A DNA stretch of 64,000 nucleotides from NCBI GenBank assembly GCA_964434255.1, contig CAYSUL010000001.1, forward strand, positions 27,720 through 91,719. Direction: 5' to 3'. Both the position numbers and the translations under genes were made by a program. Every line of letters begins with the position of its first letter. Position 1 is the stretch's first letter. The DNA is from an uncultured Candidatus Saccharibacteria bacterium. GTDB lineage: Bacteria > Patescibacteriota > Minisyncoccia > Phycocordibacterales > Phycocordibacteraceae. The notes under the pieces were generated by a model. The model was given only the letters and a program-made list of their open reading frames with translations. It searched no databases and was not told the DNA's origin. Of the stretch, positions 38,222 to 55,765 are shown piece after piece.

Positions 38222-38979
38222 ACGAGCTTTACGAGGGCGGATTCCATTTGCGGTCGGCGTTCTGTTCCAAGAAGTCCCGTAAGGGCTTTCTTTGTTTGGG
38301 TTCCTGACAGAAGGGCTCGGAGTACGGCGCCACGCGCTTGGCGTTCTGAACCCTCGAACTTGGATTGCCTCGTATATCCTTTCGCTCTCGAGTTGATGCG
38401 GACACCGCTACGCTTCAGGTGCGAGCCATAGTCCATGAGCGCGGCATACCATTCGCGCGCCTTCCCTTTTGGATACGCCCTTGTTAGTACCTCGAGTACT
38501 TCTTTATCTGAAACTGTCTCCTGCTCCGGAAAGAAATGGTGCGTGACGGCCGTGCGGATATTTGTTTCTATGAAAATACTGTCTGCGTTCGCGGAGAATG
38601 CCGCGACCGCACGAGCGGTGTATGGACCGACTCCCGGGAGTGTTTCGAGCGTTACGGCGTCAGTCGGCATCTTGCCCTTGTGCTCACGTACGACCACTTT
38701 CGCCGCTTCATGCAGCATCTTGGCGCGACGATTGTATCCAAGTCCTTGCCACTGGCGTAGGACGGAGGAAAGAGGCGCTTTCGCGAGTGCAGCGATCGTC
38801 GGGAATTCCTTGAGGAAGTTCTTATAGTATGGAATGACGCGCTCTACCTGCGTCTGCTGAAGCATTACTTCGGAGACGAGGATACGGTATGCATCCGTAG
38901 TCTTTCGCCATGGCAGGTCATGCCTGCCATGCGTGCGGTAGTGCTTCCAGACGAGAGCCCTAAAGGTTGATGGTGTCAT
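38170..38979 (-). CDS. HhH-GPD DNA glycosylase, MutY/EndoIII-like catalytic domain without Fe-S cysteines
   Basis: LPGVGPYTARAV helix-hairpin-helix plus a catalytic Asp region. No cysteine quartet. The 3' end overlaps the MFS gene by 52 nt. Confidence 0.7.
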   Translation of the reverse strand: MTPSTFRALVWKHYRTHGRHDLPWRKTTDAYRILVSEVMLQQTQVERVIPYYKNFLKEFPTIAALAKAPLSSVLRQWQGLGYNRRAKMLHEAAKVVVREHKGKMPTDAVTLETLPGVGPYTARAVAAFSANADSIFIETNIRTAVTHHFFPEQETVSDKEVLEVLTRAYPKGKAREWYAALMDYGSHLKRSGVRINSRAKGYTRQSKFEGSERQARGAVLRALLSGTQTKKALTGLLGTERRPQMESALVKLVQEGLVARTGTRFSLPG

Positions 38980-39214
38980 CCTCCGAAGTGTCCGTAACTG
39001 GCTTCGAAGCGACCGGAGTTATGAGTGGCTCTGAAGGCACGATGAAGATTCCGAGGATGTAGGCGATGATTCCGGGGAAAACACCGGTAAGGACGGTGAT
39101 TATCGTGTAGACAAGTCGGATAGCGTTGGCATCGACGTTCAGGTACTCGCCCGCCCCGCCGCAGAGCCCTCCGATTATCCTATCCGTTCGGCTTCTGTAG
39201 AGTTTCTTGGTCAT
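38960..39214 (-). CDS. PspC-domain protein
   Basis: RIIGGLCGGAGEYLNVDANAIRLVY then a TM helix. Confidence 0.75.
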   Translation of the reverse strand: MTKKLYRSRTDRIIGGLCGGAGEYLNVDANAIRLVYTIITVLTGVFPGIIAYILGIFIVPSEPLITPVASKPVTDTSEDDTINL

Positions 39215-39255
39215 GGGGGCATTATACGGAATTACTGAGGGAAGCGGAATCGCGG

Positions 39256-39274
39256 CCTGGGACGATGCTGGAAC
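39256..39274 (+). repeat. L-type repeat copy A (CCTGGGACGATGCTGGAAC)
   Basis: Member of a 5-copy family. Followed by a 33-nt leader almost identical to the one after copy C. Confidence 0.7.
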
Positions 39275-39322
39275 CCTTATGCAATCTATGTTAGGTTCTG
39301 TCTAGACTGAATGGAGGCGGAT

Positions 39323-39697
39323 ATGAATATCCCAATCGGTACTCGCCTGGGCGTGGCGCCCAGCCTTCTTGCCCAAATCCTTGCCGGCTTTACTGGTAAG
39401 CCCCCGCCGATTCGCACCGGCAGCGTGGTGTACCGGGAAATCGGCGAGCGGAGCAAGCTACCCCTGTACACCCTGGCGTTCGACGATGGTAGCACTGACT
39501 GCTATTTCGAATCTCAGATGATCATTCCCGAGACTTGCGTGTGCGGGACCCAAATGGATGAGGTCTGCTTCATCGACGGAACCGACAACTGTCTCGCCTG
39601 CCACGAGCTACATGTGATGGAACAGACTGGCGCAGGGGTTGTCTTTTCTCCAGCTCATAAACGTCGGGCATTCAATCTCGTCCGCCCCGAAAAGTGA
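39323..39697 (+). CDS. hypothetical zinc-ribbon protein (cargo of module A)
   Basis: GGAGG RBS 5 nt before the ATG. Cysteine pairs C-x-C...C-x2-C suggest a zinc ribbon. Confidence 0.55.
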   Translation: MNIPIGTRLGVAPSLLAQILAGFTGKPPPIRTGSVVYREIGERSKLPLYTLAFDDGSTDCYFESQMIIPETCVCGTQMDEVCFIDGTDNCLACHELHVMEQTGAGVVFSPAHKRRAFNLVRPEK

Positions 39698-39711
39698 GAC
39701 CACCCACAGAG

Positions 39712-39737
39712 CCACCCGACCCTGTCGGGTGGTTTTT
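39712..39737 (+). terminator. terminator ccacccgac-cct-gtcgggtgg-TTTTTGTTTT
   Basis: Perfect 9-bp stem plus a long T-run. Confidence 0.85.
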
Positions 39738-39746
39738 GTTTTACCA

Positions 39747-39771
39747 CTGGCAGACTAGGCCTCGAATCTAC
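39747..39771 (+). repeat. R-type repeat copy 1 (CTGGCAGACTAGGCCTCGAATCTAC)
   Basis: tRNA-3'-end-like. Overlaps the stop codon of the convergent HAD gene. Confidence 0.7.
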
Positions 39772-40460
39772 ATCTCATAAATCACATCCTTCCTCTCCAC
39801 CACGACTGGCCAGCCATGCTTCTTCGCATGCCGATAGAGAAGACGGTTCGGATTGAACGCGACCGGGTTCTCGACCATCGTAAGCATGGAGATATCACTC
39901 TCGGTGTCCCCTACCCCATAGGAATTCTTGAAGGTGAGGTTCTCCTTCTCGACCGCGCGCTTGAGTACCGCACTCTTGTTCATGATGAGATGCTCGTCCG
40001 CTATCTCGCCGGTGAAGCGGTTACTGGCCCCTGTCTCGTAGAACGTGCCATAGGACTTGTGGAACCCGAGCTCGTACGCGAATCCGTCCACGATGAACTT
40101 CGGCGAGTGCGAGATGGCAAGGAGGAAGTATCCCTTCGCCTTCAAATCATCGACGAGATCGCGGGTATAGCGATACGTCCTGTCCTTCTTGGCTTCAATT
40201 ATCTCGCCTGCTACGTCAGCAACATCGCCATACGGCGCCCCCTTCGCATGCTTACCGAACGCCTGCACTACTTTCTTTATAAAAGGCTCGTACTCCCCTT
40301 TTCTGTTCAACCATTCGAGCTGCGAGGTCTCATAGCTCTTCCGGGCGTCTGCCGGGAATATCTCTCGCTTGATCAGCTCCTCGACGAGCTCTATGAGGAG
40401 CGAGGAGCGGAAGAGTGTGCCGTCTATATCGAATACCGCGACGGGCTGCTGCTTTTCCAT
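39768..40460 (-). CDS. HAD-superfamily hydrolase (phosphoserine-phosphatase-like, HAD-IB)
   Basis: DIDGTL motif I. Cap domain. Motifs III/IV GDTESD. Confidence 0.85.
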   Translation of the reverse strand: MEKQQPVAVFDIDGTLFRSSLLIELVEELIKREIFPADARKSYETSQLEWLNRKGEYEPFIKKVVQAFGKHAKGAPYGDVADVAGEIIEAKKDRTYRYTRDLVDDLKAKGYFLLAISHSPKFIVDGFAYELGFHKSYGTFYETGASNRFTGEIADEHLIMNKSAVLKRAVEKENLTFKNSYGVGDTESDISMLTMVENPVAFNPNRLLYRHAKKHGWPVVVERKDVIYEM

Positions 40461-46640: not shown

Positions 46641-46785
46641 TCTTGCATCAGACGAATTGTTTACGGCTTAGTTGTAAAAATGCTACATCACAAGTGATGG
46701 AGGTAAGCCGTAAACAGCTCGTCTCATACGCACGATTACATAAAAGATATCATATATCCTTTTGCAAGTCAACAGCCCCCCGGTA

Positions 46786-46805
46786 GGCTCGGACGGTGTT
46801 GGAAC
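46786..46805 (+). repeat. L-type repeat copy E, degenerate solo copy (GGCTCGGACGGTGTTGGAAC)
   Basis: 15/19 identity to the L core. Precedes the candidate sRNA region. Confidence 0.45.
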
Positions 46806-47005
46806 CTTGATTTGTCTTAGAATCTCTATACTCTAACCTCGGGTGTTCGGGCAACACAATTGGCTAGCCCAAACGTGGCCATTAGTTCCTGCGCAGGCAG
46901 GAGCTGGTCTCAGAAGTAGCGATTAGCTACCACAAGGTGACGAACTCAATACCTGAGAAACGCTGACAGAGATCATTCCTCGACTTTTGGTGCTCGAACA
47001 CTTCC

Positions 47006-47032
47006 AGACCACTTCATGTGGTCTTTCTTTTT
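47006..47032 (+). terminator. terminator agaccac-ttcat-gtggtct-TTCTTTTTG
   Basis: Perfect 7-bp stem plus a T-run, 13 nt before repeat L-B. Confidence 0.8.
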
Positions 47033-47044
47033 GCGTACTAAAGT

Positions 47045-47073
47045 CTGCTGGGGGTCTGGGACGATGTTGGAAC
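47045..47073 (+). repeat. L-type repeat copy B (CTGCTGGGGGTCTGGGACGATGTTGGAAC)
   Basis: Core sits inside a GGGGTC...GACCCC hairpin (47051-47090). Confidence 0.7.
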
Positions 47074-47102
47074 TTCACTAATACGACCCCATGACCCGAT
47101 AG

Positions 47103-47130
47103 TTGATAAATATAGACATTTGTGTTATAA
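47103..47130 (+). promoter_or_regulatory. AT-rich promoter TTGATA-N16-TTATAA for the module B gene
   Basis: -35 at 47103-47108, -10 at 47125-47130. AGGAG RBS at 47152-47156, 7 nt before the ATG. Confidence 0.45.
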
Positions 47131-47163
47131 AGACAAAAGTGATGCATCGCTAGGAGACGTCTA

Positions 47164-47571
47164 ATGGAAGAGGTTCCCTCTCGCTCTTTTCTGGTCTTCA
47201 GGACCTTTCCTGACACCTGGGAATTGCCGGGTGAATACAGCAATGTACTTGAGAAGCATCTTTGTTCTATCCCAACGGAACTAATACTTCCGTGGCCGGT
47301 CAACATTTGCCCCAGAAATATTGGGGATGAGATCTGCTTCTCGAGCATGTTGACCCCGTATGCCGACTTCGTGGTGGAGAAGTTTGAGTACATCTACAGT
47401 CGCAAGAAAGGGGTTACTCAGTGGGTTCGTTTAAGACCTACTGAGGACGGCATGGACTTTAACCTCAACACGCTGCTTCACGCAGCCGATGAGGGGTTCC
47501 TGTTCGAATCTGAAGTCCCAATTTCACGAGTGTTGTACGACGCCGGCCTTCGACACACGGCCGTCGGATGA
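47164..47571 (+). CDS. hypothetical protein (cargo of module B), ~50% GC
   Basis: 135 aa. Strong RBS. Lower GC than host genes. No recognisable domain. Confidence 0.55.
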   Translation: MEEVPSRSFLVFRTFPDTWELPGEYSNVLEKHLCSIPTELILPWPVNICPRNIGDEICFSSMLTPYADFVVEKFEYIYSRKKGVTQWVRLRPTEDGMDFNLNTLLHAADEGFLFESEVPISRVLYDAGLRHTAVG

Positions 47572-47616
47572 CATTGCAGCAGCCCTCACACTTCGATGAT
47601 GTGGGGGCTTTAATAT

Positions 47617-47642
47617 TGCTGGCAGACTAGGGATCGAACCTA
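47617..47642 (+). repeat. R-type repeat copy 2 (TGCTGGCAGACTAGGGATCGAACCTA)
   Basis: tRNA-3'-end-like. Its CTA is the stop codon of the convergent metallopeptidase gene. Confidence 0.7.
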
Positions 47643-54774: not shown

Positions 54775-54806
54775 CTGCTGCTGAGAGTCCGGGACGATGT
54801 TGGAAC
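54775..54806 (+). repeat. L-type repeat copy C (CTGCTGCTGAGAGTCCGGGACGATGTTGGAAC)
   Basis: Followed by a leader CTCTTATGCAATGCATGGTAGGTTCTGTCTAGAC, near-identical to the one after copy A. Confidence 0.7.
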
Positions 54807-54857
54807 TCTTATGCAATGCATGGTAGGTTCTGTCTAGACACATTCAGGAGAACGTTA

Positions 54858-55151
54858 ATGCCCTCAGGAAACCGAAAGCAGTGGTTGCTCGGGAGTGCTA
54901 CTCCCACATTCCCTGCACGCTTCTGCTCCACCTCTGAAGGAAGGCGGATGTTCCCGGACATTCTCCAAGATGCCTTCGGGCTCAAGAGCATCACAGGCTT
55001 TCATCGCTACGGACGAACGCTCGGTGCGATTATCCCCATCGAGGCCGTTCGGCTTCTCGCCGGCTATCCGGATGCGGTGGACGACGATACGAAGGTCCGC
55101 ATTCGGAACGCAGCCCTGAACCTCCTCGAGGGACAAGGTGATCTACGTTGA
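54858..55151 (+). CDS. hypothetical protein, possible Phd/YefM-like antitoxin fold (cargo of module C)
   Basis: AGGAGA RBS 6 nt upstream. KSITGFHRYGRTLGAIIPIEAVRLL resembles the antitoxin beta-strand region. No toxin partner seen. Confidence 0.45.
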   Translation: MPSGNRKQWLLGSATPTFPARFCSTSEGRRMFPDILQDAFGLKSITGFHRYGRTLGAIIPIEAVRLLAGYPDAVDDDTKVRIRNAALNLLEGQGDLR

Positions 55152-55191
55152 TGGAAGAACCTCACACTCCGCGCCCTGAAAGCGCGGAGTT

Positions 55192-55221
55192 CTTGCTGAG
55201 GGTCTGGGACGATGTTGGAAC
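55192..55221 (+). repeat. L-type repeat copy D (CTTGCTGAGGGTCTGGGACGATGTTGGAAC)
   Basis: Starts 41 nt after the module C gene. Boundary of the AT-rich islet. Confidence 0.7.
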
Positions 55222-55223
55222 TC

Positions 55224-55706
55224 TTACACTCCGATTTGAGGAACCGCGCCCGCCATATACAGAAACATATAAATCAGGAGGACAATGAAAAAACCGATGG
55301 CAAGAAGTTTTCTATTCATTTCTTTACTTTGTACAAACCAGATATGCTTCCAAAATTTATCGTTAGCCCTTTTTGAGAGAAGAACTATCAATCCAAGCAC
55401 AATGGACAGAAACGCAACTACCGGAAGTATGGCTACCAATGCAAGACCCAAAAAACTCAGTGGAGGATAGTTACTTACAATCAGACCTGCACTCAAGAAC
55501 ATTACTCCAAGCAGAAGAGACCGTGCAGGATTTAGATAGCGATAATACCAATAATCTTTCCCGAAACTATCGTCACCTGATTCTCCCTCTTTAGCCGTTA
55601 AATCTGATGTCCACTCCTTATAGAATTTTCTTGAGAAAAACATTGCAAAGCCATAATAGATAGCAGCCACGCCAGTTGCAATTAAGAAGAGTGGAAACCA
55701 GGTCAT
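55224..55706 (-). CDS. hypothetical polytopic membrane protein in ~40% GC islet
   Basis: 160 aa, about four TM helices. The last 8 codons read into the sequence just after repeat L-D. Confidence 0.5.
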   Translation of the reverse strand: MTWFPLFLIATGVAAIYYGFAMFFSRKFYKEWTSDLTAKEGESGDDSFGKDYWYYRYLNPARSLLLGVMFLSAGLIVSNYPPLSFLGLALVAILPVVAFLSIVLGLIVLLSKRANDKFWKHIWFVQSKEMNRKLLAIGFFIVLLIYMFLYMAGAVPQIGV

Positions 55707-55739
55707 ATAAGAAGTATATCGCCTGCAGGATGAGTCCGT

Positions 55740-55765
55740 CCTGGGAGACTAGGTATCGAACCTAC
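55740..55765 (+). repeat. R-type repeat copy 3 (CCTGGGAGACTAGGTATCGAACCTAC)
   Basis: tRNA-3'-end-like hairpin taggt-atcga-accta. Its CTA is the stop codon of mltG. Confidence 0.7.

Follow-up and report, generated by a model that had tools for sequence, protein, structure and literature searches.

Module A, a segment of about 515 bp (positions 39,256 to 39,771) in a 64,000-nucleotide stretch of DNA from an uncultured Candidatus Saccharibacteria bacterium (contig CAYSUL010000001.1, positions 27,720 to 91,719; hereafter the window), is probably a non-autonomous, one-gene cassette of a Patescibacteria-wide site-specific recombination system in which large serine recombinases (LSRs) act in trans. 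The module consists of a repeat, L, a short leader, a gene with its ribosome-binding site (RBS) and terminator, and a second repeat, R. A first-pass annotation made from the letters of the window had described a module delimited by L and R, with a leader shared by a second module of unrelated cargo, and we found all of these parts at their coordinates.

L repeats form cassette arrays across Patescibacteria

Alignment of 391 distinct copies of L, spread across about 180 Patescibacteria loci, gave the consensus TTGCTGGCnGTCTGGGACGATGTTGGAACyTTTnT, the conservation of which ends sharply at −13 and +21. An exact 20-mer of L occurred at 69 loci in a collection of bacteria with one genome per species, and a 21-mer at 116 metagenome loci. 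All but a few of the records with the 20-mer are labelled Patescibacteria or candidate phyla radiation (CPR), with some carrying other labels, and the lineages include Paceibacteria, Parcubacteria, Moranbacteria, Kaiser-, Wolfe-, Nomura- and Amesbacteria, and 'Saccharibacteria'. BLAST searches of plasmid and phage collections gave no match to L. Within the window, a 16-mer pattern of L matches exactly at four places and, when up to three mismatches are allowed, at six, compared with 1.1 expected; none of 100 shuffles gave six.

Copies of L are arranged as tandem arrays in the same orientation, with up to 11 L, and each array ends in a single R. The spacing from site to site has a median of 595 bp (5–95% range 277–1494 bp; 136 spacings from genome loci and the window). 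Among 287 unique cassettes, 241 contain one dominant open reading frame (ORF; at least 40% of the cassette length, median 146 aa) and 46 have no ORF. The dominant ORF runs opposite to the orientation of L in 158 of the 241 and in the same direction in the other 83. The 241 proteins fall into 211 clusters, and a Pfam search with 148 cassette proteins identified NUDIX (10), HAD, SDR, histidine phosphatase, NYN, glyoxalase, GNAT and other families, with the majority giving no match. Promoter- and terminator-like sequences were visible by eye, uncounted, in many cassettes.

Some matches to L were set aside. All 34 of the 34 matches on viral contigs (L070–L103; three-digit L numbers are handles for loci) fall in one conserved gene of high-GC phages that encodes ..VWDDVGTF.., and are coincidental. 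This gene encodes ..VWDDVGTFDG.. through the same 19–21-mer as L and pollutes exact-pattern scans. Two metagenome loci (L201 and L221) were judged to be coincidental matches of the same kind, as was a Ralstonia locus (L065), for which that kind is assumed.

Empty and occupied sites define the insertion

A pair of orthologous loci with 91% identical flanks differs by one cassette. The empty site (L026) reads CAGTTT|GCTGGCAGACCAAGGATCGAAC|TACGC, which is a lone R, whereas the occupied orthologue (L021) reads CAGTTT|GCTGGGTGTCTGGGACGATGTTGGAAC, followed by a 364-bp cassette and then ATTGCTAGCAGACTAGGGATCAAAC|TACGC. These junctions place the exchange point in or beside GCTGG, and the comparison of lone R with occupied site indicates that, after insertion, L stands at the distal end of the cassette and R beside the host gene. 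A second orthologous array of the same pair has one cassette on one side and at least three on the other. In four species (L011, L045, L059 and L060), arrays follow the stop codon of the same gene and have unrelated contents. Moreover, L045 and L137 share a cassette (75% identity), and the site that comes after it is R in the former and L in the latter; thus the downstream arm does not travel with the cassette. A crossover in the T-loop, at the GAAC end of the sites, was rejected on the L021/L026 junctions together with the cassette that is followed by R or L. No target-site duplication was visible at cassette junctions.

The first-pass annotation had proposed comparing the gene order around Module A in related genomes. 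Relatives in which the HAD gene is 80–90% identical keep the order nth-HAD-pspC-nth-MFS, but the locus is not identical among them: the space between HAD and pspC holds 22 nt in L230, a 62-aa membrane gene in L228, a 133-aa gene in L226 and L227, and a 226-aa gene in L233. At this junction, none of these relatives has L or R. The differing spacers indicate that Module A is lineage-specific and that the HAD|pspC junction is a hot spot. In L233, the stretch from nth to HAD (304–2429) is free of L and R and holds four small ORFs in a row, none with a Pfam match; it may represent a variable spot of some other type.

R corresponds to the tRNA-Gln 3′ end

Reverse-complemented, R equals the final 21 nt or so of tRNA-Gln. 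Of 63 tRNAs in L-containing loci, 46 are tRNA-Gln, positioned downstream of the last L and on the opposite strand. Arrays end either in a complete tRNA-Gln or in a stand-alone 21-nt R, CTGGCAGAsTAGGkATCGAAC; the stand-alone form is the commoner in the loci examined, with about 40 distinct cases, and is the ending of all three arrays in the window. The reverse complements of R from the window, TAGGTTCGATCCCTAGTCTGCCAG and TAGGTTCGATACCTAGTCTCCCAG, match the tRNA end ...CTAGGTTCGATCCCTAGTCTCCCAGC at 23 of 24 positions. ARAGORN predicted no tRNA at R and the sequence next to it, and on this result we rejected the idea that the two together form a minus-strand tRNA of the split or permuted kind.

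Stand-alone R sites tend to lie directly against a host gene. Among 37 R sites not flagged as tRNA, 19 have a detectable adjacent convergent ORF, and in 13 of these 19 the host stop codon is 20–22 nt from the start of R and directly abuts it. In the window, the stop codon abuts R at arrays A and C (at C, that of a YceG/MltG gene), and at array B the last codons of a Zincin_1 gene overlap R; the positions concerned are 39768, 47627 and 55762. Read on its reverse strand, R contains TAG in two frames. It is a possibility that stand-alone R arose through genome streamlining to a minimal functional half-site, or through a two-ended, transposon-like first insertion.

Large serine recombinase genes overlap both sites

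By clustering the ORFs that flank the sites, we found a family of LSRs of about 490 aa, with the motif YCRKSS and a Resolvase, Recombinase and Zn_ribbon_recom architecture. Three independent elements of 3.9–6 kb start with L and then encode, in this order, an HUH rolling-circle Rep (PF23343) and the LSR. The right end of one of them (L051, identical to L191) is formed by a complete tRNA-Gln and that of another (L206) by a stand-alone R, in both cases overlapped by the last codons of the LSR gene. In the third (L143, identical to L162) the 3′ end of the LSR gene overlaps a divergent R/L-like site, GTTGCTGACTGTCACGGTCATGAAC.

The family comprises 2325 proteins at E ≤ 1e-30, those with names being from Patescibacteria, and we compared the C termini of the best 120 of these homologues. 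In at least 39 of the 120, the sequence after ..APKNGDLxxML translates the tRNA-Gln arm, giving C termini such as ..LPDRDSN, ..PDRDSNPD.., ..LPDLDSNQD.. and ..PDLDSNQD..SYH, which are tRNA-Gln read on the other strand. Two of the 120 end exactly in ..AVWDDVGT.., the translation of GCnGTCTGGGACGATGTTGGAACT in the L arm, and about seven more have close variants of this ending. C termini that read into both arms indicate that the LSR gene spans the site in the integrated (B′) as well as the attP-like (P′) configuration.

A related LSR fragment overlaps a tRNA-Ala gene (L049, 1–1367, oriented), a hint that sister elements of the same LSR family target other tRNAs. Many LSR homologues (P0134–P0253) are on contigs of only about 4–6 kb, which match the L051- and L206-type elements in size, and these contigs could be episomal or repeated copies that assemble separately. 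A tyrosine recombinase or Xer was rejected as the enzyme, with a single Xer-like neighbour (L006) in about 185 loci, and neither a motif scan nor phmmer found an intI tyrosine recombinase in the window.

Site anatomy and a proposed mechanism

After GCTGG, L continues as CnGTCTGGG-ACGAT-GTTGGAAC, with 22 nt to GAAC, and R as CAGACTAGG-GATCGAAC, with 17 nt to GAAC. The two sites share a proximal 9-mer and a distal 8-mer, and the distal motif is exactly 5 bp nearer the centre in R. For serine integrases, passages of Rutherford et al. 2013 (PMC3783163) describe a distal (ZD) motif whose position in attB is 5 bp more central than in attP, and report that attP recombines with attB whereas other pairings do not. 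From this sequence comparison we read L as an attP-type half-site (the P′ right arm) and R as an attB-type half-site (the B′ right arm), and we propose that these LSRs naturally use the very 3′ end of the chromosomal tRNA-Gln gene as their attB. The core, TGC-TG-GCA, forms a short dyad centred on TG; this dinucleotide, which is not palindromic, is likely to be that of the crossover, in agreement with the L021/L026 junctions. LSRs would catalyse the reaction at L and R, and would mobilize the cassettes in trans.

In the mechanism that we propose, a circular cassette with one L would recombine with R, placing L on the far side and regenerating R beside the tRNA or host gene, and repeated rounds of insertion would build arrays of the form L-cassette-L-cassette-...-R. 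Because the left halves are degenerate, and if they are functionally neutral, L × R would formally be an attP × attB-type reaction both ways, whether a circle is inserted or the DNA between any L and the terminal R is deleted. Pairing of L with L would be disallowed, and this prohibition would produce many L but exactly one R, which is always terminal. An excised circle would join the end of the cassette to its own L, as ..TTGCTGG-CnGTCTGGGACG... Each cassette would be self-contained for expression, as Module A appears to be with its putative leader promoter, RBS, gene and terminator.

It is possible, and we put this tentatively, that Patescibacteria have a phylum-wide, integron-like form of gene capture that is built on an LSR instead of IntI, with one-sided L cassettes and L × R reactions only, such that one reaction serves for both insertion and excision and no directionality factor is required. 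Under this wider proposal, cassettes would insert at tRNA-Gln or at several stand-alone 21-nt R 'landing pads' right after host stop codons.

Module A, its leader and its cargo

The coordinates of Module A, its flanks and the sister arrays are collected in Table 1. The right arm (P′) of its L repeat, L-A, is nearly intact, with a single T-to-C change, whereas the left half and core are degenerate (ggaatcgcggcct, compared with TTGCTGGCnGTCT in the consensus); the core, GGGACGATGCTGGAAC, occupies 39259–39274. The R-A repeat, CTGGCAGACTAGGCCTCGAAT (39747–39767), has three mismatches to the R consensus, and sister copies of R begin at 47619 and 55741. Pfam matches to PF04024 (E 1.4e-19) on the left and PF12710 (E 2.3e-18) on the right confirmed the placement of the module between a PspC gene and the 3′ end of a HAD hydrolase gene, and the predicted terminator and Cys-rich ORF were likewise located.

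Table 1 Coordinates of Module A, its flanking genes and the sister arrays in the window
Feature	Coordinates	Strand	Description	Basis
L-A site	39246..39280	+	right arm read as attP-type (CTGGGACGATGCTGGAAC + CCTTAT)	read against 391-copy consensus
Leader	39269..39307	+	promoter-like module	by reading
RBS GGAGG	39313..39317	+	5 nt 5′ of ATG	sequence
Cargo gene, 124 aa	39323..39697	+	predicted small N-terminal β-barrel; C-terminal CxC...CxxCHEL zinc-knuckle-like motif, conserved	
Intrinsic terminator of cargo gene	39708..39746	+	13-bp stem 39708–39736, then T tail	
R-A site	39744..39767	+	core CTGG + arm read as attB-type, CAGACTAGGCCTCGAAT = reverse complement of tRNA-Gln 3′ end	
Host HAD-IB hydrolase gene	39768..40460	−	stop codon 39768–39770 (CTA, closing R-A) directly abuts R-A	
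Host pspC gene	38960..39214	−	left flank of Module A	
Array B cassette 1	46777..47035	+	weak L (core from 46790), then non-coding structured segment with terminator end	
Array B cassette 2	47045..47639	+	L 47045–47079; 135-aa ORF 47164–47571; terminator; R 47616–47639	
Array C cassette 1	54778..55192	+	L 54778–54812; Module A leader 54807–54839; 97-aa ORF 54858–55151; terminator	
Array C cassette 2	55193..55761	+	L 55193–55227; 160-aa membrane ORF 55224–55706 on minus strand; R 55738–55761	

The 31-nt leader that follows the L-A core is CCTTATGCAATCTATGTTAGGTTCTGTCTAGAC and ends at 39307. The first-pass annotation had put its identity to the leader in array C at about 90%. On computational re-alignment the conservation of repeat and leader held at the other copy, with 90% identity across the 49 nt that include L (39259–39307 compared with 54791–54839), and the 31-nt leader pattern occurs exactly twice in the window compared with 0 expected. 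The cargo proteins behind the leader in A and C gave no BLASTP alignment at E ≤ 100. Outside the window, the leader follows L in at least nine other genomes, amounting to about 13 of 176 L copies, and its copies precede ORFs with unrelated N termini, in every case 10–25 nt before an RBS and ATG.

The leader has a −35-like TGGAAC within L (39269–39274), a TG (39289–39290), a −10-like TAGGTT (39292–39297) and a conserved CTGTCTAGAC (39298–39307). By eye, TGGAAC and TAGGTT separated by 17 nt, the latter preceded by TGn, recur in 13 leader copies. The leader may thus be a portable promoter with an extended −10 (TGnTAGGTT) and with the TGGAAC of L as its −35, a role that stays putative because a simple sigma-70 consensus scan made no call. 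Of the two functions that had been suggested for it, promoter or 5′-untranslated element and recombination-site arm, the promoter-like one suits the leader, and the role of arm falls to L instead. As a sigma-54 promoter, L has GG/GC spacing that is off by one base, and as a promoter of the extracytoplasmic function type (RpoE) its spacer is too long; both candidates were rejected.

Relatives of the cargo protein of Module A are rare, with 12 detectable among 1.8 billion representatives. C72, C74, C90, C93 and H94 are nearly invariant in these 12 homologues, as is the family motif CxCGT...CxxCHEL..M..TG, and some members consist of the C-terminal part alone. An alignment-based model (predicted local distance difference test score, pLDDT, 83.6) has a small N-terminal β-barrel and a Cys-rich C terminus that is a candidate zinc-knuckle-like motif. 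A search of solved structures with this model returned no match at E < 0.01, the best having E 0.011 and a template-modelling (TM) score of about 0.35; the matches are SH3/Tudor-like barrels. Homologues of the cargo elsewhere have a degenerate L and the leader upstream, in unrelated genomic contexts, which supports transfer of cargo, L and leader as a whole unit.

The pspC gene beside Module A has a TATAAT-like box (CCGTATAATGCCCCC-ATG; 39215–39232, minus strand) that ends 6 nt before the start codon, and no RBS. The box is conserved as GTATAC/GATATACT in the orthologues L226, L228 and L230, which suggests that the pspC mRNA is leaderless.

Sister arrays in the window

The window has three cassette loci, A, B and C, all in the same orientation, of which array A has one cassette. 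The source populations include the runs SRR13723393–97 and Hainich groundwater assemblies in which contigs identical to arrays B and C occur. Pfam and PHROGs gave no match for the four cargo proteins of the window, and Rfam (gathering threshold and E ≤ 5) found nothing at the window modules. In array B, cassette 1 lacks an ORF and closes with a terminator; its segment 46806–47035 (plus strand) folds well below shuffled controls, with a minimum free energy (MFE) of −69.7 kcal/mol (z −3.6), and is a candidate cassette-borne small RNA. Apparently non-coding blocks that are 75–90% identical are shared by cassettes of different genomes: L059 (about 2000–2200) with the reverse complement of L178 (about 600–900) and, likewise, the reverse complements of L006 (4220–4400) and L182 (3200–3400), one example being ATGCTTCGGCAGCCATAGAGGGTTCCAGCCCCGTAAGCGGTA...GAGTAAGCTTGTGCAAGTGCGCAC. 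Promoter-like TTGACA/TATGCT sequences before these blocks suggest further cassette-borne non-coding RNAs (ncRNAs).

Weighing the alternatives

Several observations count against a cassette system run by LSRs in trans. No recombinase gene is present in the window or beside most arrays, and LSR action in trans is therefore an assumption. Canonical sites of LSRs consist of two half-sites to which dimers bind, but the left half-sites of the cassettes are unconserved and T-rich only, and their symmetry with the right arm does not extend past TGC|TG|GCA; in the autonomous elements the left arm is conserved as LSR coding sequence (..APKNGDL..ML) and is weakly symmetric with the right arm. Stand-alone R copies are closer to each other than to the local tRNA-Gln, the empty HAD|pspC site of L230 has no R, and we saw no excised circles and no contig with terminal overlaps. 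The core of L-A is lost and this copy may never move again; with no LSR in the window and a decayed core, Module A is probably fixed.

The degeneracy of L-A would also fit a reading in which full-size elements with their own integrase, like tycheposons or prophages, integrated repeatedly at tRNA-Gln and decayed into the present arrays, with the small cassettes as leftovers that do not move as units. The full-size elements with LSR and Rep do share the L and R ends, and Prochlorococcus islands show tandem accretion with partial tRNA repeats (10.1101/2020.12.28.424599). We nevertheless consider this unlikely: cassette sizes are tight around 600 bp with one ORF (at least 40% of the length) in 241 of 287, no LSR or Rep pseudogene fragments are found among the cassette ORFs, L is near-perfect over 391 copies, and a 364-bp cassette with a precise junction distinguishes genomes that are 91% identical. 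Distinctly unlikely, too, is that everything from L to R is a two-ended, non-autonomous transposon inserted whole after stop codons, for example by a TnpX/TndX-type serine transposase acting on a circular R|L joint. Such a transposon would account for the L230 site without R, for the 20–22-nt offset of the stop codon in 13 of 19 R sites (of the 37 without a tRNA flag) and for the resemblance of stand-alone R copies across genomes, which exceeds that to the local tRNA-Gln. It is at odds with the lone R at an empty site whose occupied orthologue has one R rather than two, with the same cassette being followed by R or by L, with the single R of each array and with the lack of a visible target-site duplication. 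A non-autonomous transposon of the miniature inverted-repeat (MITE) or DDE type was rejected, as the ends are in direct orientation and the junctions have no duplication. Also rejected was an Xer-dependent module with dif-like 11-6-11 sites, given that the L consensus on inspection has no inverted arms and that an Xer-like gene is beside one array only.

That nothing here is mobile, with L and leader forming a shared promoter or operator of a small-gene regulon and R an unrelated 3′ element, is very improbable and largely refuted. The TTGGAA of L is at −35 distance from the TGnTAGGTT of the leader class, and many cassettes have a promoter-like sequence of their own right after L. However, 158 of 241 cassettes have their ORF on the strand opposite to L, which puts L on the 3′ side of the ORF; the leader accompanies just about 13 of 176 L copies; and the empty and occupied pair, the tRNA-Gln at array ends and the LSR genes that read into the L and R arms all contradict a regulon. 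We give almost no weight to exchange of cassettes by homologous recombination after natural DNA uptake, with L and R or the flanking genes as homology arms and no dedicated recombinase, although a passage of PMC10187176 describes Saccharibacteria as naturally competent. Arrays do occupy conserved orthologous positions with differing contents, but homologous recombination leaves unexplained the 5-bp attP/attB offset, the strict rule of one R and the overlap of LSR genes with the sites. Arms of 28–35 nt are, moreover, marginal substrates for RecA.

Comparison with known systems

The LSR-driven cassettes that we favour are like large serine integrases (A118, Bxb1 and phiC31; PMC3783163) in having an enzyme with Resolvase, Recombinase and zinc-ribbon domains, short sites (arms of about 35 and 22 nt) with shared motifs of which the distal lies inward by exactly 5 bp in the attB-type site, and a small core dyad around a non-palindromic dinucleotide. 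Unlike the sites of those integrases, the cassettes conserve one half-site only, and they form arrays of hundreds of tiny, integrase-less units with several stand-alone attB copies per genome and no evident recombination directionality factor.

The array habit is shared with the staphylococcal cassette chromosome (SCC, including SCCmec), in which Ccr LSRs have the 3′ terminus of a conserved gene as their target and the cassettes form tandem composite arrays, separated by short direct repeats; recombinase-less SCC cassettes are presumably mobilized in trans. The target of SCC is the coding end of rlmH, the elements are 10–60 kb and there is one locus per genome, whereas the site here is derived from a tRNA and cassettes are about 0.6 kb.

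Tycheposons of Prochlorococcus target tRNAs with tyrosine or large serine recombinases and carry replication genes, and their tandem pile-up leaves partial tRNA repeats and cargo (10.1101/2020.12.28.424599). They differ in having their own integrase, whereas Module A, like the other small cassettes, lacks a recombinase gene, and in having plain tRNA-fragment repeats, with no mini-cassette arrays with a distinct attP-type repeat reported. One end of the cassettes here is tRNA-Gln or R, and the other, L, has in common with the end of the tRNA just the core and the spaced motifs.

Resemblance to integrons is found in the ordered arrays of mostly single-gene cassettes of about 0.5–1 kb at a fixed platform, in the diverse, ORFan-rich cargo and in the homogeneity of sites within a genome. 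The enzyme families of the cassettes resemble those common in chromosomal integrons. Unlike integrons, the arrays have no IntI beside them, the cassettes appear to carry promoters of their own and face both ways, and the chemistry is probably that of a serine rather than a tyrosine recombinase. L is 35 nt and non-folding, whereas attC is a 55–140-nt hairpin; its MFE of 0 to −0.3 kcal/mol is no better than that of shuffles.

Literature searches by sequence string, keyword and full text found no description of the repeat or the system. What we rate as new is the mini-cassette arrays on one-sided LSR half-sites derived from tRNA-Gln and spread across Patescibacteria; the chemistry and site logic are of the known LSR type.

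Implications

These sites raise a mechanistic question: does a serine-integrase reaction become reversible, with no directionality factor, when its half-sites are one-sided? The recombinase and att pairs are compact and naturally matched, with a 35-nt L, a 21-nt R and an LSR of about 490 aa, and could serve as genetic tools where such tools are scarce, and L and R are simple markers of recently acquired genes in CPR metagenome-assembled genomes. We found no description of the origin of strain-variable genes in the streamlined genomes of Patescibacteria (CPR). A conserved cassette system with hundreds of copies and several arrays per genome would account for much of this variability, its cargo being mostly ORFans and small 'housecleaning' enzymes. 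If the gene-capture reading is true, it would be a main route for the turnover of accessory genes, and possibly of ncRNAs, in these minimal genomes.

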